Source: Escherichia coli
GTDB lineage: Bacteria > Pseudomonadota > Gammaproteobacteria > Enterobacterales > Enterobacteriaceae
Strand: one strand, 5' to 3'
Assembly (NCBI RefSeq): GCF_013315695.1
Contig: NZ_CP054353.1
DNA: 64,000 nt
Part shown: piece after piece, positions 6,651 to 42,480 of the stretch
How the letters are laid out: the number at the start of each line of letters is the position of its first letter
Numbering within the stretch: the first letter of the stretch is position 1
Notes under the pieces: generated by a model
What the model was told of the DNA's origin: nothing
Databases searched by the model: none
The model's input: the letters and a program-made list of their open reading frames with translations, nothing else
Made by a program: the position numbers and the translations under genes

Positions 6651-7919
6651 ATGTTTATGGGGTGTGAGTGCATGGAAAAGAACTACAGAGTTACAACATT
6701 TGTCATGGATAGTGGCGAGCGCTATTGCATGGTAGTGGATCGTGCTTCTGGGCTTCCCATGTATTACCCCACTCTGTTTCTAACAACTCAAATCCGCAAT
6801 AGAGAGGATGCTTTTTCAACGATGTTGGCGGCGGCTAACAACCTGGTTATGTTGTTACGCTTTGTAGAGAGTCGCGACATTGACCTTGAGCAGCGGTTTT
6901 TGACCAAAGACTTCTTCAAGCCACATGAGCTGGATGATCTGCGAGATTTTGCTCAGTGCAAACAAAGAAAGGGGCCATTAACTGTGTCCTCTACCTCTTG
7001 GTTGGCCGATGCGATGACCGATATCGTTGATAACGGGACACAGCATTCCCGGCTAACAACGTTTGCCAACTATTTACACTGGTATGCGATGCATATCTTA
7101 AAGACGACAGAACTGGAAGTTGTCGAAAAGATCAATGCTATGGCGGCGCAGATAAAGACGCGCCGACCATCTAAAAAGCGCAGAAACCACGACTTACAAG
7201 ACAGGTCATTGAGTGATGTTCAATTGGACGCGCTATTTGAAGTCATCCAGCCTAGATCAGAGTTAAACCCTTTCTCAATAGATGTGCAGCGCCGCAATCG
7301 GCTGATGATCTTACTTCTGTTTTATCTTGGCATCCGAGGTGGTGAATTATTAAATATAAGAATACAGGACATAGATTTTAGCGCTAACAGGATCCGTATC
7401 GTTAGGAGAGCAGATGAACAAGCTGACTCTAGAACCAATGAGCCTAATGCTAAAACTAGAGAACGGCTCTTACCGTTGGCTGAATCCTTAGCTCAAGAAC
7501 TGCATAGTTATATCCTTCAAGATCGCCGGAAAGTCAGAAATGCGAAGAAAAATGACTATCTGTTTGTAACTTACAAGAGTGGACCAACTCTGGGAAATCC
7601 TATCTCCAAAGGGGGATATCATAAAATTTTTTCCGTAGTCAGGTCTATATCACCGCAATTGTATGCAGCGACAGGACATTCGCTCCGCCACACTTGGAAT
7701 CGCAAGTTTTCAGAAAGAATGGATGCCATGAATGAGCAAGTCAGCGAGGAACGCCAAGAGCAACTTCGTTCGTACTTAATGGGCTGGAGAGATGGCTCGG
7801 GAACCGCAGCGACTTACAACAAGCGTTTCATTCGGCAAAAAGGTTTTGAGGCCGCCTTGGCATTACAAGCAGGTAACGGCACTAGCTTGCCAGAGGACTT
7901 CAAGGATGACCATGAATAA
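6651..7919 (+). CDS. Tyrosine recombinase 1 of trio (integrase family, 422 aa; start may be the internal Met at 6672)
   Basis: Catalytic signature seen in translation: ...GIRGGELLNI... (Arg), HSLRHTW (His-x-x-Arg), LMGWRDGSGTAATYNKRF (Tyr nucleophile). Confidence 0.8.
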   Translation: MFMGCECMEKNYRVTTFVMDSGERYCMVVDRASGLPMYYPTLFLTTQIRNREDAFSTMLAAANNLVMLLRFVESRDIDLEQRFLTKDFFKPHELDDLRDFAQCKQRKGPLTVSSTSWLADAMTDIVDNGTQHSRLTTFANYLHWYAMHILKTTELEVVEKINAMAAQIKTRRPSKKRRNHDLQDRSLSDVQLDALFEVIQPRSELNPFSIDVQRRNRLMILLLFYLGIRGGELLNIRIQDIDFSANRIRIVRRADEQADSRTNEPNAKTRERLLPLAESLAQELHSYILQDRRKVRNAKKNDYLFVTYKSGPTLGNPISKGGYHKIFSVVRSISPQLYAATGHSLRHTWNRKFSERMDAMNEQVSEERQEQLRSYLMGWRDGSGTAATYNKRFIRQKGFEAALALQAGNGTSLPEDFKDDHE

Positions 7920-9444
7920 CCTCTTACTTGGGTTAGTACCAGAACGAATCCGTGCCAGGGCCAATGGCTACTCTTTTCTGTTGTATGACACATCGTGGAC
8001 ATTGGATAGAAATATCACTATTAATCTTGCTGATATTCACCATTACTTGTCAGATGGGACGCTAGATGGCTGCCTGCGTACACTGGCGTTTTATGCATCC
8101 AATCGTTCTTCTTCTCATACAAAAAATATTCTTGAACGGTTTCAGCACATGCTGCGTGAGACTGACGCGAGAGAAATTACTGATACGGTATTGATTAATT
8201 ATCGGTCGATGCTGTCGCCTGCAACAGAATGGTATCTAGCAACCATCCGTGGCTTTCTTCGATCCTGGCACGAACTGGGCTATCCCGGCATCAGTAAGGA
8301 GGTGAACCGCTTGCTAGATGGCTGGACGCTAAAGGGTAATCGTAAGGGGGATGCGGTTAAGCGCATGGATCCTCAAGAGGGGCCACTGACGGATAATGAG
8401 CTGACAGCGTTTAACGAGGGGGCTGTTCGGGCTTATGAAAAGAGCTTAATTACTATAGCTGAGTTGGCTATAGCACTTGGCACCAGTCATACAGGACGTC
8501 GTCCCATTCAGATCTCGCTGCTTCGTGTGGTCGATGTCCTTTGTGGTAAAAATGGAAAGGGAGAGCCCTTCTATGTGTTGAATGTGCCGCGAGCCAAGCA
8601 GCGCAGCAGCTCTTTCCGAATAAACTTCAAACCATTTGCAATATCACTGGAACTATGGGCAATCCTGAGTGCTCAGGCAAGAAATGCGATTGCGCAGGTT
8701 GAAAATCGTTTGGGGTTTGAATTGCAGGAAGATGACCGGCAGCAAATCCCTCTTTTTCCTGATCTTGATGTGTTAGATGCCGTCCAATCTCCTTATGAAT
8801 TCCGCCAACTGCATGCTACCGACAAACTCCACATTCCCGCCGCAGAGATAACCGACACCCTCCAATACATCGTAGAAAAGTCCGACATCCGGTCGGAACG
8901 TACCGGTGAGCTATTACATATCAATGCTCGTCGTTTTCGTTATACCACAGGCACACGAGCTGCCCGGGAAGGCTTTGGCGAGCTGGTGATTGCGGAACTG
9001 CTTGACCACGCGGACACCCAAAACGCAGGCGTTTACATCAAGAATATCCCCGAGCATGTGAAAAAGCTTGATGAGGCGGTTGGCTTCCAATTAGCACCAT
9101 ACGCTCAGGCCTTTGTCGGGGCACTTGTCGATTCAGAGAGAGACGCGCATCGAGGTAACGACCCTACCAGTCGTATTCGGACCGAAATGGGTCAGGGTGT
9201 TGGTACTTGTGGAGAACATGGCTTTTGTGGTGCCAATGTTCCTATTCCTTGCTACACCTGCATGCATTTCCAGCCTTGGCTGGACGGCCCACATGAAGAT
9301 GTCTATCAAGGACTGCTCAACGAACGTGAACGGGTGAAAGAGATAACTGGCGACATCCAGATTGCTGCCGTACTTGATCGCAGTATTATCGCGCTGGCAG
9401 ATGTGATCATGCGTTGTGCAAAACGTCGTGAAGAGCTTAGTTAA
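7906..9444 (+). CDS. Tyrosine recombinase 2 of trio (about 513 aa)
   Basis: C-terminal region with RRFRYTTGTRAAREG and LLDHADTQNAGVYI (R/H...Y pattern); ATG at 7906 or 7912 overlaps the upstream stop at 7917-7919. The ORF-track start at 7792 is rejected as an overlap artefact. Confidence 0.75.
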   Translation: MTMNNLLLGLVPERIRARANGYSFLLYDTSWTLDRNITINLADIHHYLSDGTLDGCLRTLAFYASNRSSSHTKNILERFQHMLRETDAREITDTVLINYRSMLSPATEWYLATIRGFLRSWHELGYPGISKEVNRLLDGWTLKGNRKGDAVKRMDPQEGPLTDNELTAFNEGAVRAYEKSLITIAELAIALGTSHTGRRPIQISLLRVVDVLCGKNGKGEPFYVLNVPRAKQRSSSFRINFKPFAISLELWAILSAQARNAIAQVENRLGFELQEDDRQQIPLFPDLDVLDAVQSPYEFRQLHATDKLHIPAAEITDTLQYIVEKSDIRSERTGELLHINARRFRYTTGTRAAREGFGELVIAELLDHADTQNAGVYIKNIPEHVKKLDEAVGFQLAPYAQAFVGALVDSERDAHRGNDPTSRIRTEMGQGVGTCGEHGFCGANVPIPCYTCMHFQPWLDGPHEDVYQGLLNERERVKEITGDIQIAAVLDRSIIALADVIMRCAKRREELS

Positions 9445-9460
9445 CAGGGAGCAATAACCA

Positions 9461-11494
9461 ATGGCTGAGATTTTCCTGTTTAAGCCAAAGGCTACGCTGA
9501 CAGCAGCAGAAAACCTTGAAGCATTCATATCCCAGTGCCGAGATCAATTGACTGTATTCGGCTCTGATCTCACTTGGGAAGATCCTGTTTGGCCAAACAT
9601 AACTGTATTTGCCAAGTTGGGCATTATTACGAGAAAACCCATACTGGAAGAGACGCAAGACCCTGCTTTCATTGATTTTGCCAAAGCCTATTTCCGTTAC
9701 CAGCAGGGGCATAGCCTCTCTAGGGCAAAGAATGAAAGTAAAGCCCTCCGTGCGGTTGAGGCGGCTTTGCTTCAAGTAAATGGAAACGCAAATATTGATG
9801 GCCTGTCGATTTCTGTGCTGGATGAAGCAGCTGAATTGGCAAAGCATTACTACTCCGATGGCTCCGCATATCATTGTGGCCGTGAGATTGAGCGGCTGGC
9901 TAAGTTTGTAGCTGAAAACCAGCTTGTATCAAGTGCTGTACAAAATTGGGTCAATCCAATTAAACGTGCAGAGGATAAGAACAAAACGAGCAGAAAGGCG
10001 AAGAAAAATAGGGAAGATAAACTTCCGAGTGATATTGCTCTTAATGCGTTGGCGGAAATTTTTGCCAACGACCCAATTCATGAGCGAGACATATTTACAA
10101 CATCGGTTTTTGCCATGTTGATGTCGGCACCTTCACGTATTACTGAGGTGTTAGCACTGCCTGTGGATTGCGAGGTTTTTGAAACGGATCGTGAAGGGAT
10201 AGAACGATATGGTTGGCGTTTTTTTGCGGGGAAAGGCTATGAGGGTGATATCAAATGGATACCCACCGTGATGGTCGGTATAGCTAAGACAGCCGTAGCT
10301 AGAGCTAGAGTGCTCTCTGAAAATGCACGACAACTGGCCAAGTGGATCGAGAAACACCCGAATAAGTTTTACCGCCATGCTAACTGTCCCAGTGTAGCCG
10401 ATGATGAGCCATTGACGATGAAGCAGGTTTGTATGGCGCTCGGTTTTGCACATTACTCTAAAAAGACGTGCAGGTCGTGTCTTGGTAATCGAGGTTTAGC
10501 TAAAGAGGATGGTGTACATACTCTAAATAGCCTGTGGCAGCACACAATGGCGCGTTTACCGGATGGCTTTCCGTGGTTTGATAAAGACAAGGGAATTAGG
10601 TACAGCAATGCCTTGTTTGTACTGAACGTAAATCAGTTCCACGGGAACAGAGGATGCATACCAGTTGAGTTACATAAGCCAACCAATAATTTCTTCAACA
10701 GTGATCTGACGCCTCGTCTGTCCTTGAAAGGAAAACATGCCAGTATCTTTGATCGCCATGGTTACCATGCTGTAAACGGAGAGCCGGTGAAATTAACCTC
10801 ACATCAGGCTCGACACCTGCTCAACACCATTATCCAGCGCGGTGGCCTGTCAAACTTGGAAATTGCCAAGTGGTCGGGGCGGGCAGATGTGAAACAGAAT
10901 CGAACTTACAACCACATGACTGAATACGAACTGGTTGGCATTGCTGAACGCCTTGATCCCACAACAGCGCTATTTGGGCCTGCTGGCGAGGTGGCAAAGC
11001 ATCTGCCCGTGACTATGCAGGAGTTCAATACCTTAGAGCATGCCGCAGTCCATGTGACGGAGTATGGCTACTGTGTGCATGATTACACCATGAGTCCTTG
11101 TGAGAAATTCCGAGATTGCGTCAATTGTACCGAACAGGTTTGCATCAAAGGCGATGATGCTGAAAAGTTGGATCGCATTAAGATACGTCTGGAGAAATTA
11201 GAGCGACTGTTTTTTCTTGCTGACGCAGCAGTGGAAAGTGGTGAGATAGGAACTGATCGCTGGTATCAGTACCACAAGAAAACTGTTACCCGGCTTCGTG
11301 AACTAGTGGCTATTTTAGAGAATCCAGACATTGAAAATGGTGTCCAGATTAAGCTCCGGGGCAATGATTTCAGCCAGCTTCGCCGTGTTGTCGCAAAGAC
11401 GTCTATTGTGGCCATCGAGCAAAAAGGCAAAGAAAGTGAAGAAGCTGTGATGTTAGATGATTTGACAACTTTGTTAGGAGGTGGCCTTGGCTAA
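9461..11494 (+). CDS. Tyrosine recombinase 3 of trio (677 aa)
   Basis: LTSHQARHLLNT (H-x-x-R-H) and WSGRADVKQNRTYNHM (Tyr) motifs; RBS-like cagggag 8 nt upstream of ATG. Confidence 0.75.
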   Translation: MAEIFLFKPKATLTAAENLEAFISQCRDQLTVFGSDLTWEDPVWPNITVFAKLGIITRKPILEETQDPAFIDFAKAYFRYQQGHSLSRAKNESKALRAVEAALLQVNGNANIDGLSISVLDEAAELAKHYYSDGSAYHCGREIERLAKFVAENQLVSSAVQNWVNPIKRAEDKNKTSRKAKKNREDKLPSDIALNALAEIFANDPIHERDIFTTSVFAMLMSAPSRITEVLALPVDCEVFETDREGIERYGWRFFAGKGYEGDIKWIPTVMVGIAKTAVARARVLSENARQLAKWIEKHPNKFYRHANCPSVADDEPLTMKQVCMALGFAHYSKKTCRSCLGNRGLAKEDGVHTLNSLWQHTMARLPDGFPWFDKDKGIRYSNALFVLNVNQFHGNRGCIPVELHKPTNNFFNSDLTPRLSLKGKHASIFDRHGYHAVNGEPVKLTSHQARHLLNTIIQRGGLSNLEIAKWSGRADVKQNRTYNHMTEYELVGIAERLDPTTALFGPAGEVAKHLPVTMQEFNTLEHAAVHVTEYGYCVHDYTMSPCEKFRDCVNCTEQVCIKGDDAEKLDRIKIRLEKLERLFFLADAAVESGEIGTDRWYQYHKKTVTRLRELVAILENPDIENGVQIKLRGNDFSQLRRVVAKTSIVAIEQKGKESEEAVMLDDLTTLLGGGLG

Positions 11495-11906
11495 GCATCT
11501 GGACAATAGAGACATTAACGCCATCGTAAATCTAATTCGAGGATGGAAGGAACCAAAACTGTCCTGGTCAGCAATTTGTGAGGCGGCAGAACCATTGGTC
11601 GGAAAGTTGCCGTCAAGACAGTCCCTTAATGCACATGAGGCAATAGTGACTGCCTATCAAACAAAGAAAGAGGCGCTTAAAGGCCGTGGCCCCAAAAATC
11701 CGCGTCCAGCTAGTTTGAACATTGCAGCCGCGAGGATTGTGAATCTTGAAAGCGAAATCGAAGAGCTTAAGGAAGAGAACCGGAGGTACAAACAACAGTT
11801 TGTGATCTGGCAATACAATGCATACAAATATGGAATGACAGAACATCAACTTAATGCGCAGCTGACAAAGATTGACCGTGAGCGCTCTGATGGAGAAAGA
11901 AGATAG
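11481..11906 (+). CDS. Small protein (about 140 aa) coupled to recombinase 3; possible ginD-like accessory factor
   Basis: ORF overlaps the 3' end of recombinase 3 (GTG 11481 or TTG 11487 just after aggagg); C-terminal half has coiled-coil character (LESEIEELKEENRRYKQQ). Function not recognisable. Confidence 0.5.
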   Translation: MALAKHLDNRDINAIVNLIRGWKEPKLSWSAICEAAEPLVGKLPSRQSLNAHEAIVTAYQTKKEALKGRGPKNPRPASLNIAAARIVNLESEIEELKEENRRYKQQFVIWQYNAYKYGMTEHQLNAQLTKIDRERSDGERR

Positions 11907-11981
11907 TTGCTGAGTACGATATCGAGGGTACATTTCTCTGTGTAGGGGTAGTTATTTACAAAAAAATAGGAGAATAATTAA

Positions 11982-14900
11982 ATGGTCAAACCAAACTGGG
12001 ATAACTTTAAAGCTAAATTTAGTGAGAATCCTCAAGGTAATTTTGAGTGGTTTTGCTACTTGTTGTTCTGTCAAGAATTCAAAATGCCCGCAGGTATATT
12101 TAGATATAAGAATCAATCTGGTATCGAAACTAATCCAATAACCAAAGATAATGAAATTATCGGTTGGCAATCTAAATTCTATGACACAAAATTGTCGGAT
12201 AACAAAGCTGATCTTATAGAAATGATTGAGAAAAGCAAAAAGGCTTATCCAGGATTAAGTAAAATCATTTTCTATACTAATCAAGAGTGGGGGCAGGGGA
12301 GAAAGTCCCATGAACCTGAAGGCGATAAGAACGCTGATAATTATTTGGAAACTGTCGGAAATAGTAACGATCCCAAAATAAAAATTGAAGTTGATCAGAA
12401 AGCATATGAGTCGGGTATCGAAATAGTATGGAGAGTTGCTAGTTTTTTTGAATCACCGTTTGTAATAGTTGAGAATGAAAAGATTGCTAAACATTTCTTC
12501 TCCCTTAATGAAAGCATCTTTGATTTATTAGAAGAAAAGCGCAAGCACACAGAAAATGTTTTATATGAAATTCAAACCAATATAGAGTTCAAAGACAGAA
12601 GTATTGAAATTGACAGACGACATTGTATAGAACTTCTACATGAGAATCTAGTTCAGAAAAAAATTGTCATCGTCAGCGGAGAAGGTGGGGTTGGAAAAAC
12701 AGCAGTTATCAAAAAAATTTATGAAGCAGAAAAACAATACACTCCTTTCTATGTCTTTAAGGCTAGCGAGTTTAAAAAGGACAGTATTAATGAGCTATTC
12801 GGTGCGCATGGCTTAGACGATTTCTCTAATGCTCATCAAGACGAATTACGTAAAGTCATAGTCGTAGATTCTGCTGAAAAGCTTTTAGAACTGACCAATA
12901 TCGATCCTTTTAAAGAATTCCTGACTGTTTTAATAAAGGATAAATGGCAGGTTGTTTTCACAACCCGTAACAACTACTTGGCAGATCTGAACTATGCTTT
13001 CATAGATATTTATAATATAACTCCTGGAAACTTAGTAATAAAGAACCTTGAACGCGGCGAGCTAATAGAGTTATCTGATAACAATGGATTTAGCCTTCCT
13101 CAAGATGTTCGATTATTAGAACTAATCAAAAATCCATTTTATCTAAGTGAATATTTGAGGTTCTATACCGGTGAAAGCATCGATTATGTGAGCTTCAAAG
13201 AAAAGCTTTGGAATAAGATTATTGTCAAAAATAAACCTTCTCGGGAGCAGTGTTTCTTAGCGACTGCTTTTCAGCGGGCTAGTGAGGGCCAATTTTTTGT
13301 CTCCCCGGCATGTGATACTGGAATTTTAGATGAGTTAGTTAAAGACGGAATTGTCGGCTATGAAGCTGCTGGTTACTTCATTACACATGATATATACGAG
13401 GAATGGGCATTAGAAAAGAAAATTTCTGTCGATTATATCCGTAAAGCGAACAATAACGAGTTCTTCGAAAAAATAGGAGAATCACTTCCTGTTCGCCGTA
13501 GTTTTCGGAATTGGATATCTGAACGATTGCTTTTAGATGACCAGTCCATAAAGCCTTTTATCGCAGAAATAGTCTGTGGAGAAGGAATATCAAATTTTTG
13601 GAAAGACGAGTTATGGGTAGCTGTCCTTCTTTCCGATAATTCAAGCATATTTTTTAATTACTTTAAAAGATATTTACTTAGTAGTGACCAGAATCTATTA
13701 AAAAGACTTACTTTCTTATTGAGGCTTGCTTGCAAGGACGTTGATTACGATCTGCTTAAACAGTTAGGTGTAAGTAATTCAGATCTGCTTTCCATTAAAT
13801 ATGTTCTTACTAAGCCTAAGGGAACTGGTTGGCAGAGTGTGATCCAATTTATCTATGAAAATTTAGATGAAATAGGGATCAGAAATATTAATTTTATACT
13901 TCCTGTGATTCAGGAGTGGAATCAAAGAAACAAAGTGGGTGAAACGACTCGATTATCTAGTTTGATAGCCCTAAAATATTATCAATGGACTGTAGATGAG
14001 GATGTCTATTTATCCGGAAGGGATAATGAGAAAAATATTCTGCATACGATTCTTCATGGGGCGGCCATGATTAAACCTGAAATGGAAGAGGTTTTAGTTA
14101 AGGTTCTTAAAAATAGGTGGAACGAGCACGGTACCCCATATTTCGACCTTATGACCTTAATCCTTACTGACTTAGATTCATATCCGGTTTGGGCATCTCT
14201 CCCGGAATATGTTCTACAATTGGCAGATCTGTTCTGGTATCGGCCACTTAAAGAAACAGGCGAACGTTATCACAGTATGGATATTGAAGATGAGTTCGGT
14301 CTATTTAGGTCTCATCACGACTATTATCCAGAAAGTCCATATCAGACTCCTATATATTGGTTACTACAATCACAGTTCAAAAAAACAATAGACTTTATTC
14401 TTGATTTTACGAACAAGACAACGATATGTTTTGCCCACTCCCATTTTGCTAAAAACGAAATTGAAGAAGTCGATGTCTTTATTGAAGAAGGAAAGTTTAT
14501 AAAGCAATATATATGCAATCGTCTGTGGTGCTCATATCGAGGAACACAGGTCTCTACCTACTTACTTTCATCAATTCATATGGCATTGGAAAAATTTTTT
14601 CTTGAGAATTTTAAAAATGCAGACTCGAAAGTGTTGGAAAGTTGGCTTCTTTTCTTGTTAAGAAATACCAAGTCAGCTTCTATTTCTGCAGTAGTTACGA
14701 GTATTGTACTTGCATTCCCTGAGAAGACATTCAATGTAGCTAAAGTACTATTCCAAACAAAGGATTTCTTCCGTTTTGATATGAATCGAATGGTTCTAGA
14801 CAGAACACATAAAAGTTCATTAATCTCCCTCAGGGATGGCTTTGGCGGTACAGATTACAGAAACTCTTTGCACGAAGAAGATAGAATTAAAGCTTGCGAT

Positions 14901-16745
14901 GATGTGCATAGAAATACTTATCTTGAAAATCTTGCCTTGCATTATCAAATTTTCAGGAGTGAAAATGTAACGGAGAAAGATGTCATTGAAAGGCAACAAG
15001 TGCTCTGGGGTATTTTCGATAAATACTATAATCAGCTTCCAGATGAAGCTCAAGAAACTGAAGCCGATAAGACGTGGAGGCTCTGCTTGGCAAGAATGGA
15101 TCGGCGAAAGATGAAAATAACTACCAAGGAGAAAGATGAAGGGATTGAGATATCATTCAATCCTGAGATTGACCCTAAACTAAAGCAATATAGTGAGGAA
15201 GCAATAAAGAAAAACTCCGAGCATATGAAGTATGTAACGCTGAAACTATGGGCAAGCTATAAAAGAGAAAAGGATGAACGTTATAAGAATTATGGAATGT
15301 ATGAGGACAATCCGCAAATTGCTTTACAAGAGACCAAAGAAATAATAAAAAAGCTTAATGAGGAAGGGGGTGAAGATTTCAGACTATTAAATGGTAATAT
15401 ACCAGCAGACGTTTGTTCTGTATTACTGTTAGATTACTTTAATCAGTTGAATAATGAAGAGAGAGAATATTGTAAAGATATTGTTCTAGCATATTCTCAA
15501 CTTCCGTTGAAGGAAGGCTATAATTATCAGGTACAAGATGGGACAACCTCGGCAATTTCAGCCTTACCCGTGATTTATCATAATTATCCAATGGAAAGGG
15601 AGACTATAAAAACAATATTACTTTTGACACTGTTTAATGACCACTCTATTGGAATGGCAGGTGGGCGCTACTCAGTATTTCCTAGTATGGTGATTCATAA
15701 ATTATGGCTAGACTATTTTGATGATATGCAGTCTCTATTGTTTGGTTTTTTGATTTTAAAGCCAAAGTATGTAATTCTTTCAAGAAAAATCATTCATGAA
15801 AGTTATCGTCAAGTAGACTATGACATTAAAAAAATAAATATTAATAAGGTGTTTTTAAATAACTATAAGCATTGCATATCAAATGTCATCGATAATAAAA
15901 TATCTATAGATGATTTGGGAAGTATAGATATAGTTGATCTACATATTTTGAACACAGCTTTCCAATTAATTCCAGTTGATACTGTTAATATTGAACATAA
16001 GCAATTGGTTTCCTTAATTGTTAAAAGATTTTCTACAAGCCTATTGTCAAGTGTTCGAGAAGATAGAGTTGATTACGCTCTTCGGCAGTCTTTCTTGGAA
16101 AGATTTGCCTACTTTACGCTTCATGCGCCCGTGAGCGATATTCCCGATTATATAAAACCTTTTCTTGATGGTTTCAACGGTTCAGAGCCTATTTCAGAGT
16201 TATTTAAAAAATTTATTCTCGTCGAAGATAGATTAAATACTTACGCCAAATTTTGGAAGGTTTGGGATTTGTTTTTTGATAAAGTGGTTACTTTGTGCAA
16301 GGATGGAGATAGGTATTGGTATGTAGATAAAATTATAAAAAGTTACCTTTTTGCTGAATCTCCATGGAAAGAAAACTCTAATGGTTGGCACACATTTAAA
16401 GATAGCAATAGTCAATTCTTTTGCGATGTATCTAGGACTATGGGCCATTGCCCTTCAACTTTATATTCTCTTGCCAAATCTTTGAATAACATTGCCAGTT
16501 GCTATCTTAATCAAGGTATAACCTGGCTTTCAGAAATGTTGTCGGTTAATAAAAAGCTATGGGAAAAGAAATTGGAAAATGATACTGTTTATTTTTTAGA
16601 ATGTTTGGTTAGGCGGTATATTAACACTGAGCGTGAGCGAATTAGACGAACCAAACAGTTGAAAGAAGAGGTCTTAGTAATATTGGATTTTTTGGTAGAG
16701 AAAGGATCTGTTGTTGGTTATATGTCACGGGAAAATATTCTGTGA
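11982..16745 (+). CDS. Large STAND-type P-loop NTPase (1587 aa): N-terminal unknown domain (about 1-220), NTPase core (about 225-330), about 1250-aa helical C-terminal region; candidate anti-phage (Avs-like) protein
   Basis: Strong RBS (aggag, 9-nt spacer). Walker A GEGGVGKT (aa 233-240), Walker B VIVVDSAE (aa 292-299), TTR motif in QVVFTTRN (aa 323-330) typical of STAND NTPases. Very AT-rich codon usage; no transmembrane or secretion signals noticed. Confidence 0.8.
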   Translation: MVKPNWDNFKAKFSENPQGNFEWFCYLLFCQEFKMPAGIFRYKNQSGIETNPITKDNEIIGWQSKFYDTKLSDNKADLIEMIEKSKKAYPGLSKIIFYTNQEWGQGRKSHEPEGDKNADNYLETVGNSNDPKIKIEVDQKAYESGIEIVWRVASFFESPFVIVENEKIAKHFFSLNESIFDLLEEKRKHTENVLYEIQTNIEFKDRSIEIDRRHCIELLHENLVQKKIVIVSGEGGVGKTAVIKKIYEAEKQYTPFYVFKASEFKKDSINELFGAHGLDDFSNAHQDELRKVIVVDSAEKLLELTNIDPFKEFLTVLIKDKWQVVFTTRNNYLADLNYAFIDIYNITPGNLVIKNLERGELIELSDNNGFSLPQDVRLLELIKNPFYLSEYLRFYTGESIDYVSFKEKLWNKIIVKNKPSREQCFLATAFQRASEGQFFVSPACDTGILDELVKDGIVGYEAAGYFITHDIYEEWALEKKISVDYIRKANNNEFFEKIGESLPVRRSFRNWISERLLLDDQSIKPFIAEIVCGEGISNFWKDELWVAVLLSDNSSIFFNYFKRYLLSSDQNLLKRLTFLLRLACKDVDYDLLKQLGVSNSDLLSIKYVLTKPKGTGWQSVIQFIYENLDEIGIRNINFILPVIQEWNQRNKVGETTRLSSLIALKYYQWTVDEDVYLSGRDNEKNILHTILHGAAMIKPEMEEVLVKVLKNRWNEHGTPYFDLMTLILTDLDSYPVWASLPEYVLQLADLFWYRPLKETGERYHSMDIEDEFGLFRSHHDYYPESPYQTPIYWLLQSQFKKTIDFILDFTNKTTICFAHSHFAKNEIEEVDVFIEEGKFIKQYICNRLWCSYRGTQVSTYLLSSIHMALEKFFLENFKNADSKVLESWLLFLLRNTKSASISAVVTSIVLAFPEKTFNVAKVLFQTKDFFRFDMNRMVLDRTHKSSLISLRDGFGGTDYRNSLHEEDRIKACDDVHRNTYLENLALHYQIFRSENVTEKDVIERQQVLWGIFDKYYNQLPDEAQETEADKTWRLCLARMDRRKMKITTKEKDEGIEISFNPEIDPKLKQYSEEAIKKNSEHMKYVTLKLWASYKREKDERYKNYGMYEDNPQIALQETKEIIKKLNEEGGEDFRLLNGNIPADVCSVLLLDYFNQLNNEEREYCKDIVLAYSQLPLKEGYNYQVQDGTTSAISALPVIYHNYPMERETIKTILLLTLFNDHSIGMAGGRYSVFPSMVIHKLWLDYFDDMQSLLFGFLILKPKYVILSRKIIHESYRQVDYDIKKININKVFLNNYKHCISNVIDNKISIDDLGSIDIVDLHILNTAFQLIPVDTVNIEHKQLVSLIVKRFSTSLLSSVREDRVDYALRQSFLERFAYFTLHAPVSDIPDYIKPFLDGFNGSEPISELFKKFILVEDRLNTYAKFWKVWDLFFDKVVTLCKDGDRYWYVDKIIKSYLFAESPWKENSNGWHTFKDSNSQFFCDVSRTMGHCPSTLYSLAKSLNNIASCYLNQGITWLSEMLSVNKKLWEKKLENDTVYFLECLVRRYINTERERIRRTKQLKEEVLVILDFLVEKGSVVGYMSRENIL

Positions 16746-16790
16746 TGTAGTTGAAAATAATAATTTTAATGAGAGCTTTTCCAATTTAGG

Positions 16791-16815
16791 CTCCAGGGAT
16801 TGGAGCCTTTTTATT
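16791..16815 (+). terminator. Intrinsic terminator after the large NTPase gene
   Basis: Hairpin ggctccaggg-a-ttggagcc followed by tttttatt. Confidence 0.6.
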
Positions 16816-16840
16816 ATCGAAAAGATTAATATCTTATAAG

Positions 16841-17059
16841 TCAATCAGTAAAACGCAGCAAAGCTCGTTGCTCTTGAATGTTCACTCCGTGATAAATTCT
16901 TTGATTACCACATAAATAACAAGAACAAGCACAAGGGGTGCAGTAAATTTTCCCTACAACTTTTTCAGTTTTAGCCAACGCAATTCGATATGTTTTTCTC
17001 TTAGATTTTAACCGAGATATATGATGACGACGCCATGCCCGATTTCTAACCATTTCCAT
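16841..17059 (-). CDS. Small basic Cys-rich hypothetical protein (72 aa)
   Basis: ORF with GGAG-type RBS; Arg/Lys-rich N-terminus and a CTPCACSCYLCG cysteine cluster (possible zinc ribbon). No family recognised. Confidence 0.3.
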   Translation of the reverse strand: MEMVRNRAWRRHHISRLKSKRKTYRIALAKTEKVVGKIYCTPCACSCYLCGNQRIYHGVNIQEQRALLRFTD

Positions 17060-17283
17060 TCACTCCAATTTTCTACCGCGGTGTTATACCGCGCCCGTAT
17101 CAATCTTTGGAGTTCGATATCGATCTGACCTTTCATGAATACCTCGGAATTTATCAATAAAGTGAGTGCTATATCATAGCTTATGGGATGAAAGTTTGAT
17201 ATTTAGCACTTTTCAGCTTTAGGTAAAGCTGTCCTCAATAAAGCTAATTTCTTGTTTATTAATGGAATTTCTATGTGGAAGTG

Positions 17284-18105
17284 TTAGAAATCCTGTTTTA
17301 CTTTATCCATCGTTAAAACTTTACTTATTATATAAGGATCATAATTTCTTATACTCATAAGGCAATTTATCAAATTGGAAACGTGGCTATCATCAGGTAT
17401 AAGTATATATTTAATATCATCGAAAGAAAAACCAATGCCAAATTCAGAGAATTTTTTACTTAAGACGGCCTTCTGGTTAGGTTCCACCACTCGCTCTAAA
17501 TTTAGGCTAGGCCATAAATCGCCAACAAACGGATGCGGTACATATCTCCATTCTTTTTCGTCAGCGTAGATATAATTCTCAATGGTTTTTTCGTTCGTCC
17601 TTTCTAATTTCCCTTTATAATTTTTCATATAGCGTAATAAATTATAAAGGTCAGCGTACTCTTCTTTAAGGCTTTCAAAATACTTACGCTCTTTATTATC
17701 AAGGATATGCCTTTTCGACCATAGCGGAATTAACGCATCCTTTAGTTTTCTAATTCTTTTATTATACTTTGAAAATAATTCACTGCCTTGATTCATGTAT
17801 AGAACGGGATGGAGATCATTTTTCTCAGCCCATTCTTTTGTTAACCCAAATCCAAATTCACCATATTTTCCACTATGATCTTTAATCTGAGAAAGCTTGA
17901 TGTCACAGAATGAAACCATTGGTACTGCGAAATTTCTTCTTCCTTTTACTCCGACTATGCGTTCACGGGCAAGAAATGGTTTAAAATAGAGTTCTGTTAA
18001 AATGCTATAGAATGCCTCTTCATTTTTAGTAAAGTGAAACAACGTTGTTGGATGTAAACTATTAACTGCTTGTATAACTGTTTCTTGGTTTTCTATAGCA
18101 CTCAT
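17284..18105 (-). CDS. AbiGi-like abortive-infection family protein (273 aa)
   Basis: N-terminal LFHFTKNEEAFYSILTE... resembles, by recall, the FHFT-type N-terminus of AbiGi-family proteins; AT-rich; convergent with the NTPase gene. Confidence 0.55.
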   Translation of the reverse strand: MSAIENQETVIQAVNSLHPTTLFHFTKNEEAFYSILTELYFKPFLARERIVGVKGRRNFAVPMVSFCDIKLSQIKDHSGKYGEFGFGLTKEWAEKNDLHPVLYMNQGSELFSKYNKRIRKLKDALIPLWSKRHILDNKERKYFESLKEEYADLYNLLRYMKNYKGKLERTNEKTIENYIYADEKEWRYVPHPFVGDLWPSLNLERVVEPNQKAVLSKKFSEFGIGFSFDDIKYILIPDDSHVSNLINCLMSIRNYDPYIISKVLTMDKVKQDF

Positions 18106-21221: not shown

Positions 21222-21686
21222 ATGGAAAAGAAATTACCCCGCATTAAAGCGCTGCTAACCCCCGGCGAAGTGGCGAAACGCAGCGGTGTGGCGGTATCGG
21301 CGCTGCATTTCTATGAAAGCAAAGGGTTGATTAGCAGTATCCGTAATAGTGGCAATCAGCGGCGATATAAACGTGATGTGTTGCGATATGTCGCAATCAT
21401 CAAAATTGCTCAGCGTATTGGCATTCCGCTGGCGACCATTCGTGAAGCATTTGGCGTGTTGCCCGAAGGGCATACATTAAGTGCGAAAGAGTGGAAACAG
21501 CTTTCGTCCCAATGGCGAGAAGAGTTGGATCGGCGCATTCATACCTTAGTGGCGCTGCGTGACGAACTGGACGGATGTATTGGTTGTGGCTGCCTTTCGC
21601 GCAGTGATTGCCCATTGCGTAACCCGGGCGACCGCTTAGGAGAAGAAGGCACAGGCGCACGCTTGCTGGAAGATGAACAAAACTAA
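21222..21686 (+). CDS. soxR: MerR-family redox sensor SoxR (154 aa)
   Basis: MerR HTH at the N-terminus and the C-terminal [12 protein letters not shown] [2Fe-2S] cluster motif. Confidence 0.95.
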
Positions 21687-21830
21687 AGCGCCACAAGGGC
21701 GCTTTAGTTTGTTTTCCGGTCTTTGTCTTTCTCTCTATCCCGCTGGTACACAGGAGGGTTTCCCCCGACGTCAACACACCTCATTCGAGCACGTGGTGGA
21801 GGTTCCGGTTGGTGTTGATGCTTTAATTGT
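21687..21830 (-). ncRNA. ryjA: Candidate small RNA RyjA (convergent with the soxR 3' end); coordinates approximate
   Basis: From recall of the K-12 map only (sRNA between soxR and the ghxP gene); the soxR terminator hairpin aaagcgccacaagggcgcttt is present. Not verifiable by eye. Confidence 0.3.
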
Positions 21831-22231
21831 ATGTTACCGGCGTTTCTTCGCCAGTGTAAAAGTACACTTTTTAGCCGCAATATTTTTGTCATCTCAGACG
21901 ATTTTTTATCGCAATCCTGAACGGTATACGGTTCGATAACGCTGCAATCTTGCGCATCGACGATAACGTTTGCGCATCAATTGCCTGGTTTTTCATCGTC
22001 AAGACAATAAAAGAGAAAAAAGCAGCAAACTTCGGTTGAAAAAGCCGCTATGATCGCCGGATAATCGTTTGCTTTTTTTACCACCCGTTTTGTATGCGCG
22101 GAGCTAAACGTTTGCTTTTTTGCGACGCACCAATTTGTCGCAAACCTGGAGCAGGAAGATAACGTTTCGCTGGCAGGGGATTGTCCGCCACGCATCTTGA
22201 CGAAAATTAAACTCTCAGGGGATGTTTTCTT

Positions 22232-23605: not shown

Positions 23606-23618
23606 GTGGCAATGGCTG
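23606..23618. repeat. IS4 target-site duplication, left copy (gtggcaatggctg)
   Basis: Identical 13-mer directly abuts both IS4 ends. Confidence 0.8.
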
Positions 23619-25044
23619 TAATGCCAGTCAGTTAAGCAACTGACTGGCTCTTTTTCGGGGCTGTGGGGTATTTCCAGGGCCTCTCCTTTACCACTCTCGG
23701 GAAGGCCCTTTCCCTTCTTGTCGGTAATTTCACAAGTTGTCCCATACTTGCAAGATCGCGCATCAGCTCCGGTATACGTCCCGGTGAAGCGCCCTGCAAT
23801 GTCATCAGCATTCTCATCACCATTCCGCATGATTCTGAGAAACTCAGTTGATTCGGCCAGTAACCTTTCAGATGTTCCGCCATTTTAATCATCTGATATC
23901 TCACCAGATTATAAGCCAGTAAGACACCCCACAGCTCTTGCTCCACAAGCTCCGGTTTTTTACTTCTCAGCGTCAGCCTGCTCAGTTGCATCGTCTGTTT
24001 TATCTCCCTGTATCCCAGTTCGATTTCCCAGCGATGACTGTACAGATCCGCCATTTCTCCTCCGGGGAAGCGCATGGCGTCCGTCATCGACGTCAGCAGA
24101 TGGCAGACTTTTCCTTTGCGCGTCACGGTCAGCAGGCGGGCTGTCACTTCATTTCCCAGTCCCGGCCACTTTTTTCGTGCCTGCGGGCTGGTTTTCAGCT
24201 TCACCAGATGATCGCCTTTACCCAGTTTTCTGATCTCTTCATATTGCGCTCCCTTTCTGAGAGGTATCATCCAGTGGCGGTGTTCTCCCGCCAGGCTCCA
24301 GGCATTTAACAGTCCCAGTGAGTAATAACCTTTATCCATTAACGTCAGAGTGTTATCGCCGGTTTGTTCTATAAGTTGCTCAGCAAGCTCATTTTCGCTG
24401 TTCTTCATCGTGCCGAAGGCTGCAGCCGTCAGCAGATGGCTGGTCAGTTCCATCTGGCAGACCATTTTGACCTGCGGGTAGAGCGCCGGGTTCCCGGCAT
24501 GTGTCTGGCGGGGGAAGGCTGCATCGTTCTCTGGTGTATCCGGTGTGCGCCAGAACACACCATCGATGGCCAGCAGGGTCAGGCCGCACCAGTGCGGATG
24601 CGGCGTGGCGTTATGCCAGAGCTGCGCTGTTTTCGTGAACACGCGGCGGACAGCCTCACTTCCCAGGCGCTGGCGGGCCTGAATAACGGCACTGGGGGCA
24701 ACGAAGGGGCGATTGCCCGGCAGCATGATGTCCAGGCGATTCACAATCTGGTGAAGAGGTTCTTTACGCTCAAGCGCCATGCCAACAATACACCAGACCA
24801 TCATTTCGAGGGGAAGACGGCGCTTGCGTAGCGTTACAGTACCTGATTCGGCAAGGCAACGAGAGATGAGTTCGGGGTCGAGGTAATCCCCCAGAGAAGT
24901 CAGTGGGTTACGCAGAGAATCGTAACGGGATACCAGATCAAGAGCCTGTCCAATGTGCATAAAAAAATCCGGAAACAAGTGAGCGTTTCCGGATTCTTAC
25001 ACAGCCACTGGATCGGTCAACTGATCCTTAACTGATCGGCATTA
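23619..25044 (-). mobile_element. Insertion sequence IS4, complete (1426 bp)
   Basis: Terminal inverted repeats TAATGCCAGTCAGTTAAG (left) and CTTAACTGATCGGCATTA (right, 16/18 match); length 1426 bp equals canonical IS4; single transposase ORF. Confidence 0.9.
23632..24978 (-). CDS. insG: IS4 transposase (DDE family, 448-aa ORF)
   Basis: ORF fills the IS; translation recognised as IS4 transposase by recall. Confidence 0.88.
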
Positions 25045-25057
25045 GTGGCAATGGCTG
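25045..25057. repeat. IS4 target-site duplication, right copy (gtggcaatggctg)
   Basis: Identical to 23606-23618. Confidence 0.8.
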
Positions 25058-40332: not shown

Positions 40333-42480
40333 TTACGCCAGTGCCGCTTCGCGCAGGCGAGTTTTCAACTTGTTGTACTCGTCAATCACGTACTGCTCGG
40401 CGGCGCGCTGATCGGCGATCGGCTCGACGCGCACGGCGCAGTATTTGTATTCCGGCGTTTTCGTAATCGGGCTTAAGTTTTCGGTAACCAGCTCGTTACA
40501 GGCACCAATCCACCACTGGTAGGTCATGTAAATCGCCCCTTTGTTCGGACGATCGCTGACCTGCGCACGGGTGATAATTTTGCCTTTACGCGAGTGCACC
40601 CAAACCAATGCCTCATCTTCAATACCCAGACGTTTGGCGTCTTCGGTATTGATTTGTGCGTAGCCAGGTTCATCAGCCAGCGCCGCCAGTGCCGCACAGT
40701 TACCGGTCATCGAACGGCAAGAGTAGTGACCAACTTCACGCACCGTTGACAGTACCATCGGATACTCGTCGGTGAGTTTGTCGATTGGCGCTACCCAGTC
40801 GCAGGTGAAGAACTGCGCCAGACCGTTCGGGGTATCAAACTTCTCTTTAAACAGATAAGAAGTCCCCTGATCGGCATCTGAAGTATCGCGGCAAGGCCAC
40901 TGAATGAAGCCCAGTTCGCCCATTTTCTCGTAAGTCGCACCGTAGAAATCCGGGCACAGATGACGCAACTCATCCCAGATCTCCTGGGTGTTGTTGTAGT
41001 GCATCGGATAACCCATACGGGTGGCGATTTCACTGATGATTTGCCAGTCCGTTTTCAAATCCCATTTCGGTTCAACTGCTTTAAAGAAACGCTGGAAGCC
41101 ACGGTCAGCCGCAGTAAACACGCCTTCATGCTCGCCCCATGACGTTGACGGTAAAATGACATCCGCCGCCGACGCGGTTTTGGTCATAAAGATGTCCTGA
41201 ACGATGACCAGTTCCAGATCTTCAAAGGCTTTACGTACTGCCGACAGCTCCGCGTCAGTTTGTAGCGGATCTTCGCCCATAATGTACGCGGCACGCACTT
41301 CACCATGCTCTGCGCGGTGCGGCAGCTCGCTGATGCGATAACCGGTATGAGCGGGCAGGCTTTCCACGCCCCAGGCTTTGGCGAATTTCTCGCGGTTAGC
41401 CGGATCTTTCACATACTGGTATCCCGGATACGTATCCGGCAGCGCGCCCATATCGCAGGCACCCTGCACGTTGTTCTGACCACGAACCGGGTTTACACCC
41501 GCATGCGGCTTACCGAGGTTACCAGTCAGCATCGCGAGGCTGGTCAGAGAACGCACGGTTTCCACGCCCTGGTAGAACTGGGTTACACCCATGCCCCACA
41601 GGATGGCGGCGCTTTTCGCCTGGGCATACATCCGCGCCGCCTGACGAATCTCACTGGCGCTGACGCCGGTGATATCTTCAACCGACTCCGGCGTGTAGCC
41701 TTCAACGATTTTACGATACTCTTCAAAGCCTTCTGTACGGGAAGCGACGAACGCTTTGTCGTACAGATTTTCTTCAATAATGACATGGCCCATCGCATTC
41801 AACAGCGCGATGTTCGAGCCGTTTTTCAATGCAATGTGCATGTCAGCAATGCGCGCAGTTTCAATTTTGCGCGGATCGCAGACGATAATTTTCGCCCCGT
41901 TACGTTTAGCGTTAATTACGTGATTCGCCACGATTGGGTGGGAATCCGCCGGGTTATACCCGAAAACGAACACTAAATCGGTATTATCAATTTCGTTAAT
42001 AGCATTGCTCATTGCGCCATTACCGACCGATTGGTGCAGACCTGCAACCGATGGGCCGTGTCAGACACGAGCGCAGCAGTCAACGTTATTGGTACCAATA
42101 ACGGCGCGCGCAAATTTTTGCATTACATAGTTGGTTTCGTTACCCGTACCACGCGAGGAGCCGGTCGTCTGGATGGCATCCGGACCGTACTTCTCTTTGA
42201 TGGCGCTCAGGCGCTCGGCAACGTAATTCAGTGCCTCATCCCAGGAAACAGGTTCGAGTTTGCCGCCACGCTGGCGACGGATCATGGGGGTTTTCAGGCG
42301 CGGGGTCAGGATCTGGGTATCGTTAATGAAGTCCCAGCCATAATAACCCTTCAGACACAGGGTACCCTGGTTGGTTTTCCCCTGCGCTGCCTCCGCCCGG
42401 ACGATTTTGCCGTTATCGACGACCAGGTTGATTTTGCAACCTGATGCGCAATAGGGGCAAACCGTGACGACTTTTTTCAT
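40333..42480 (-). CDS. fdhF: Formate dehydrogenase H, selenoprotein (715 aa; in-frame UGA at 42058-42060 decoded as selenocysteine)
   Basis: Two ORF-track segments (42061-42480 and 40333-42012) are in the same frame and separated only by TGA; N-terminus MKKVVTVCPYCASGCKINLVV...; SECIS-like hairpin immediately 3' of the UGA. Confidence 0.95.
42010..42057 (-). other. SECIS element (selenocysteine insertion hairpin) within the fdhF mRNA
   Basis: mRNA sense reads UGA CAC GGC CCA UCG GUU GCA GGU CUG CAC CAA UCG GUC GGU AAU; matches the fdhF SECIS stem-loop by recall. Confidence 0.75.

Follow-up and report, generated by a model that had tools for sequence, protein, structure and literature searches.

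On its minus strand at 21679..21819, the 64,000-nucleotide stretch of Escherichia coli DNA analysed here (the window) carries the known sRNA gene ryjA, also called sraL; both names refer to the same RNA (PMC3753932). When the whole window was scanned with Rfam, a single match was obtained in this region, RF01408 (sraL, described in Rfam as "sraL Hfq binding RNA"), at 21819..21679. It scored 153.3 bits (gathering score 39, E = 1.1e-34), and the match covered model positions 1-142 of 142, not truncated. The sequence is identical at 141 of 141 positions to ryjA of K-12 MG1655 (b4459, annotated at NC_000913.3 4277926-4278066, minus strand), and its ends coincide with those of the annotated ncRNA feature, with the +1 nucleotide, an A, at 21819 and the 3′ end (...GCGCUUUAGUUUU) at 21679. 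K-12 soxR (4277469-4277933) is annotated as overlapping ryjA by 8 nt. The same overlap was found in the window, and in the alignment the flank downstream of the ryjA 3′ end is identical to that of K-12. The genes are arranged in the order soxR (plus), ryjA (minus), ghxP (plus), as follows.

21222..21686, plus strand: soxR coding sequence, from the ORF list and K-12 annotation; convergent with ryjA, its last 8 nt overlapping the RyjA 3′ end
21679..21819, minus strand: ryjA/sraL sRNA gene, 141 nt, from the Rfam match and K-12 identity
22232..23581, plus strand: ghxP (permease), from the ORF list and K-12 annotation

The sequence-only reading had suggested a possible RyjA gene between soxR and a permease gene, transcribed toward soxR. 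Both statements were borne out by the full-length sraL match and the K-12 identity, with ghxP as the permease gene and with ryjA and soxR on opposite strands; alignment to annotated ryjA, which had been named as the check, left no mismatch. The interval given there, 21687-21830 and called approximate, had the right location, with the 3′ end 8 nt short and the 5′ end 11 nt long. Taken as a whole, the stretch is almost certainly best explained as the gene for the Hfq-binding RNA RyjA/SraL, with a sigma-S-type promoter, a terminator shared with soxR and action in trans on tig and rho. Known since 2001, RyjA/SraL has a K-12 annotation, a curated Rfam family and published targets. The feature is thus already known, annotated and functionally studied, and it sits at its canonical place; nothing about its identity is new, and the interest of the finding is low because a known RNA was found in its usual location.

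Of 5426 complete E. coli genomes, 5420 had a match to the 141-nt ryjA query, and in 5400 the identity was 99% or higher, whereas a 641-nt query that included the neighbouring spacer was mostly only 95-99% identical. The RNA is therefore more constrained than its surroundings. In the complete genome NZ_CM132948.1, the RyjA match was split into two places, the best of which contained query positions 1-112 only, and this suggests an insertion or rearrangement inside ryjA. Loci beyond E. coli were collected, with one genome per species, by a pattern consisting of ACCGGAACCTCC, a gap of 22-42 nt and GGGGGAAACCC. The scan returned 55 loci from about 20 genera, essentially all Enterobacteriaceae, including Escherichia, Salmonella, Citrobacter, Enterobacter, Klebsiella, Raoultella, Leclercia, Lelliottia, Cedecea, Trabulsiella, Atlantibacter and others. 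The pattern requires the motifs at RNA nt 11-22 and 54-64, and by construction, therefore, the columns of these motifs do not vary, and neither do helices 2 and 5.

The window and 54 loci were aligned with MAFFT, and the Rfam consensus structure was projected onto this alignment. Standard pairs were formed in 96.5% of the alignment cells, compared to 41-54% when the 3′ partners were slid by 1-3 columns. Eight pairs were changed on both sides, compared to 4.1 +/- 1.2 in column shuffles, and none of 500 shuffles reached eight. The compensatory support sits in helices 1 and 6 and in the terminator helix 7 (one pair), while helices 2, 4 and 5 never vary in the alignment and are hence uninformative on covariation, 2 and 5 lying within the search pattern. 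In helix 1, for example, an AU pair in 21 sequences is replaced by GC in 29, and UCAACAC/GUGUUGA appears elsewhere as UCAGCAC/GUGCUGA or UCGGCGC/GNGCCGA. The conserved secondary structure is supported by covariation. A single-sequence fold of the whole RNA was modestly better than shuffles (z = -1.9), and a modest fold score of this kind is usual for sRNAs with long single-stranded segments. The structural parts of RyjA are located as follows.

21771..21818, minus strand: 5′ domain, helix 1 (RNA nt 2-8 with nt 43-49); 4 of 7 pairs compensatory, 96.9% paired
21738..21755, minus strand: internal stem-loop, helix 6 (nt 65-70 with nt 77-82); 3 of 6 pairs compensatory, 98.5% paired
about 21711..21737, minus strand: purine-rich single-stranded linker (GAUAGAGAGAAAGACAAAGACCGGAAAACAAAC region, with the stretch GAUAGAGAGAAAGACAAAGACCGGAAA); nearly every alignment column invariant, outside the search pattern
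21680..21710, both strands: bidirectional intrinsic terminator of soxR (plus) and ryjA (minus); 13-bp stem, G+C core, T runs on either side

An (ARN)x motif flanked by two stem-loops has been described at RyjA nt 84-117 (PMC5575007), and from its sequence the linker is expected to be such a motif for the distal face of Hfq. The sequence features of an Hfq module, namely a 3′ hairpin with a U tail and an internal ARN motif, are present and conserved, and in Salmonella SraL is stabilised by Hfq (PMC3753932).

A terminator scan of the minus strand identified at 21680..21710 a stem of 13 bp closed by a loop of 5 nt, with U-rich sequence after it. The soxR terminator hairpin had been placed at about 21685-21705; aaagcgccacaagggcgcttt lies exactly at those positions and makes up the G+C core of the longer inverted repeat 21680..21710, with the soxR stop codon (21684-21686) inside the stem. 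When 51 nt around the hairpin were folded, the plus strand reached -22.6 kcal/mol (z = -6.0) and the minus strand -20.5 kcal/mol (z = -5.4), and for either strand none of 200 shuffles was as good. The hairpin is also the RyjA terminator helix of the Rfam model (positions 111-141), that is, helix 7 of the Rfam structure, 97.3% paired in the alignment of 55 sequences. The earlier suggestion that it could serve both transcripts agrees with its folding on both strands, and by these predictions one hairpin is the terminator of both convergent transcripts, soxR and ryjA.

Open reading frames cover the same stretch on both strands. On the plus strand, an 88-aa ORF (21673..21939) runs intact from ATG to stop through 88 codons and is given as a CDS in NZ_OZ546925.1 and other RefSeq E. 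coli records (WP_001330155.1, 'hypothetical protein'). That it is a real protein is scarcely credible on the evidence of the alignment: it has no Pfam match, its frame is single and stop-free in 3 of 55 loci, all of them near-identical Escherichia, and a 1-nt indel shifts the frame even in E. albertii and in a divergent E. coli lineage. The frame is open because it lies on the pyrimidine-rich complement of a purine-rich RNA, and conservation tracks the RNA helices, not codons. These counts come from a tblastn frame test, which was used because composition makes the counting of stop-free stretches uninformative as a test of an antisense ORF. WP_001330155.1, antisense to ryjA, is probably a spurious call and an annotation artefact. 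A 62-aa ORF on the minus strand was also considered, and a coding function for it was rejected.

The RNA itself contains a 26-aa ORF from AUG to UAA (RNA nt 36-116, MRCVDVGGNPPVYQRDREKDKDRKTN), by which RyjA would be a dual-function RNA that also encodes a peptide. The start codon is found at that alignment column in just 14 of the 55 loci, however, and ORF length ranges from 15 to 43 codons. The AUG lies within the predicted helix 3, and the sequence before it, CACGUGCUCGA-AUG, is without an upstream Shine-Dalgarno. We consider a peptide-coding role for RyjA extremely improbable, and the preferred reading is the Hfq-binding sRNA.

Upstream of the RNA start, the following elements were identified.

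21820..21825, minus strand: A/T-rich discriminator TTAAAG, directly after the -10 element; conserved in the alignment
21826..21831, minus strand: -10 hexamer TACAAT (-12..-7); conserved in the alignment
21849..21854, minus strand: weak -35-like element CTGGCG with a 17-nt spacer to the -10 element; -35 assignment by spacing
21867..21889, minus strand: conserved A/T-rich element at -48..-70, consensus CGAAAAAATTTCGGCnAAAAA; several nearly invariant columns in the alignment

Across the 55 Enterobacteriaceae loci the -10 element has the consensus TAsAmT, with A at position 2, A at position 4 and T at position 6 invariant, followed by TTAAAG. The -35-like element is weakly conserved (CTGGCr). It reads CTGGCA in most genera, its GG is invariant or nearly so, and the flanking bases are conserved. 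This matches the RpoS-type arrangement described in PMC3753932, in which the -10 is conserved, the discriminator A/T-rich and the -35 degenerate. Judged by its sequence, the ryjA promoter appears to be of the sigma-S (RpoS) type, which fits the published RpoS dependence. A consensus promoter scan proposed TTTACA-18-TAACAT instead, and this candidate was rejected. Its TAACAT lies 5 nt upstream of the conserved TACAAT and is itself not conserved; it was set aside because in the cross-genus alignment TACAAT is conserved and at the correct distance from +1.

The A/T-rich block at -70..-48 is near-palindromic in many genera, and it could be an UP element or a regulator site. In Salmonella, SraL was still expressed and detected when a cassette was inserted at -59 (PMC3753932), and the -48..-70 element is therefore not essential under those conditions.

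Compared to K-12, the window has four substitutions upstream of +1, at 21874, 21865, 21840 and 21835 (-55, -46, -21 and -16). All four lie within 80 nt of the start, and they could in principle have inactivated the promoter, so that ryjA would be silent in this strain and the stretch would be the soxR terminator only. We regard this as very unlikely: none of the four falls in the -10 or -35 hexamer, and the conserved -10 (21826..21831) and the -35-like element are left untouched. The same upstream sequence is present in other Escherichia loci and also, with 100% identity, in several clinical E. coli genomes, and across E. coli strong purifying selection acts on the transcribed part. We infer that ryjA is transcribed in this strain, because its sequence is identical to that of the K-12 gene.

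The spacer between ryjA and ghxP gave no Rfam match at gathering threshold for a riboswitch or other cis-regulatory RNA. Within it (21940..22180), AACGTTTGC-type motifs are clustered at 21965, 22064 and 22107, and with at most 1 mismatch only 27 such matches occur in the whole 64 kb. The first spacer motif, ACGATAACGTTTGCGC, resembles ACGCAAACGTTTGCGT, which we take to be the PurR operator consensus. A PurR-like motif would fit purine control of ghxP, a guanine/hypoxanthine transporter gene. On the other side of ghxP, before yjcE, lies a complete IS4 (1426 bp, 23619..25044; region 23606..25057), with its transposase on the minus strand at 23632..24978 and a 13-bp target duplication (GTGGCAATGGCTG) on its flanks. 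IS4 was found at the ghxP-yjcE site in 3 of 5426 complete E. coli genomes, for example MSB1_4I (NZ_LR898874.1), and this rare site hints at the lineage of the window.

Two further features were observed elsewhere in the window. An integrase-bearing island of about 12 kb (6651..18105) is located between ssb and yjcB/pdeC and is missing in the otherwise syntenic strain MS 21-1. By its gene content, it looks like a mobile anti-phage defence island.

6651..7919: tyrosine integrase (PF00589)
7792..9444 and 9461..11494: two large ORFs with no Pfam or PADLOC match
11982..16745: full-length Avs4 antiviral STAND NTPase (PADLOC PDLC02169, 2361 bits)
17284..18105, minus strand: AbiGi-like protein

Additionally, Rfam SECIS_2 was matched at 42014..42068 on the minus strand (87.1 bits, gathering score 70), immediately upstream of a 559-aa ORF on the same strand (40333..42012). 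Together they form the pattern expected for an fdhF-type (formate dehydrogenase H) selenoprotein gene with an in-frame UGA.

The RyjA/SraL transcript is documented in both K-12 and Salmonella (PMC3753932, PMC5389530, PMC12956327). Its +1 nucleotide is an A, confirmed by TSS use, and RyjA is not natively NAD-capped (PMC12956327). In Salmonella, where the evidence comprises Northern blots, lacZ fusions and compensatory tig mutations, SraL accumulates in stationary phase, its level is about 500-fold lower in an rpoS mutant, and RpoS ChIP enriches its promoter more than 100-fold (PMC3753932). K-12 RyjA is likewise induced in stationary phase and is included in a list of RpoS-regulated sRNAs (PMC12266141); the RNA is polyadenylated, and its stability is strongly increased in a pcnB mutant (PMC5389530). 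Salmonella SraL represses tig; its 5′ region pairs with the mRNA in two blocks, of 7 and of 3 bp, that lie a few nucleotides before the Shine-Dalgarno (PMC3753932). According to Silva 2019, as cited in two reviews (PMC6582626, PMC12360218), SraL also pairs with the rho leader and blocks premature Rho-dependent termination. Regulation of tig and rho was shown in Salmonella, and in the literature searched we found no direct demonstration of either in E. coli.

We compared RyjA to the K-12 tig and rho leaders by 16x16-nt window scans, with 25 shuffles as controls. In the best tig duplex, RyjA nt 28-34 (GUGCUCG) pair with tig -29..-23 and, beyond a 1-nt bulge, nt 25-27 pair with tig -21..-19; the duplex marks a candidate site in the RNA.

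21786..21795, minus strand: candidate tig-pairing segment, RNA nt 25-34 (CACGUGCUCG), from the best local duplex with the K-12 tig leader

This duplex of 7+3 bp ends 7 nt upstream of the GAGG Shine-Dalgarno of K-12 tig, and so has the published geometry. Its energy is -16.4 kcal/mol, and 17 of 25 shuffled sRNAs were as good. For such short seeds, an energy indistinguishable from that of shuffles is expected. The tig pairing is consistent with the published mechanism and is no independent proof of it. With the K-12 rho leader, the window scan gave no outstanding duplex (7 of 25 shuffles as good), and whole-molecule RNAduplex runs of RyjA against the tig and rho leaders produced meaningless full-length zippers that shuffles equalled.

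In the mechanism that we propose, transcription would start at the A at 21819 from the sigma-S-type promoter (TACAAT, A/T-rich discriminator, weak -35) and would stop at the intrinsic terminator whose hairpin serves the convergent soxR on the other strand. The RNA so formed would consist of the covarying 5′ stem domain, the small internal stem-loop, the (ARN)x linker and the terminator hairpin with its U tail, and the expected contacts are of the linker with the distal face of Hfq and of the U tail with the proximal face. RyjA would accumulate in stationary phase and act in trans through short imperfect base pairing: it would repress tig, which encodes trigger factor, through pairing with the mRNA shortly upstream of its ribosome-binding site, and its pairing with the rho leader would prevent premature Rho-dependent termination there. 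Its end would come by polyadenylation-initiated decay. By analogy with the published systems, we infer that RpoS dependence, stabilisation by Hfq, regulation of tig and rho, and polyadenylation-initiated decay hold in this E. coli strain.

Compared to known RyjA/SraL (RF01408, b4459), the gene in the window has the same sequence, consensus structure, terminator, sigma-S-type -10 and soxR overlap, and it differs from K-12 only by the four substitutions upstream, outside the promoter core. The functional data on SraL (tig, rho, RpoS ChIP) come from Salmonella, in which the upstream neighbour is STM4267 and not ghxP. OxyS, MgrR, MicM (ChiX) and OhsC have, like RyjA, an (ARN)x motif between two stem-loops (PMC5575007), but they are unrelated to it in sequence, and regulons and inducing signals differ. 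SdsR/RyeB and GadY resemble RyjA in their sigma-S-dependent promoter, stationary-phase accumulation and Hfq association (PMC3753932, PMC12266141), although they have no sequence relationship to it and different targets. DsrA, ArcZ and RprA suppress premature Rho-dependent termination by pairing in the long 5′ leader of rpoS, ahead of the ribosome-binding site, much as is reported for SraL on rho (PMC6582626, PMC12360218). The sRNAs and targets differ, however, and since the target of SraL is rho itself, a feedback on the termination factor results.

The arrangement with soxR raises the question of an action in cis. RyjA might act on termination or stability of the soxR mRNA in stationary phase, either in addition to its trans action or instead of it. 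Over about 30-37 nt at their 3′ ends, in the terminator, the convergent transcripts are perfectly complementary; RyjA also overlaps the soxR coding sequence by 8 nt, and the hairpin is common to both. The complementary region, however, is held in a very stable intramolecular hairpin in both RNAs. A soxR homologue lies convergent just past the RNA 3′ end in 54 of 55 loci, whereas the gene on the other side varies: ghxP was detected in only about 42 of the 55 loci, some of which are too short to show it, at variable distance, and in Salmonella that neighbour is STM4267 (PMC3753932). In 42 of the 54 loci with soxR, the gene ends 135-161 nt from the RNA start, which implies that the terminator is shared there, but in the other 12 it ends about 30-520 nt beyond the RNA, so that the overlap is not universal. 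Bidirectional terminators are common between convergent genes and do not require a regulatory meaning, and none of the papers found in the literature search reports an effect on soxR. We consider a cis action improbable. The more specific proposal, that the near-universal ryjA-soxR coupling is functional and RpoS-driven ryjA transcription modulates soxR mRNA termination or stability, is slightly less probable still; the route may be collision of transcription complexes or a 3′-3′ RNA duplex. The preferred reading remains a trans-acting, Hfq-binding RyjA.

In the PGAP-annotated RefSeq E. coli records examined, ryjA was not annotated. The practical value of the finding is thus one of annotation: it gives the exact coordinates of ryjA (21679..21819, minus strand) for records in which the sRNA is missing and in some of which a probably spurious 88-aa CDS is present. 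If the coupling to soxR were true, it would tie the stationary-phase response to the superoxide response, besides the known trans targets of RyjA.
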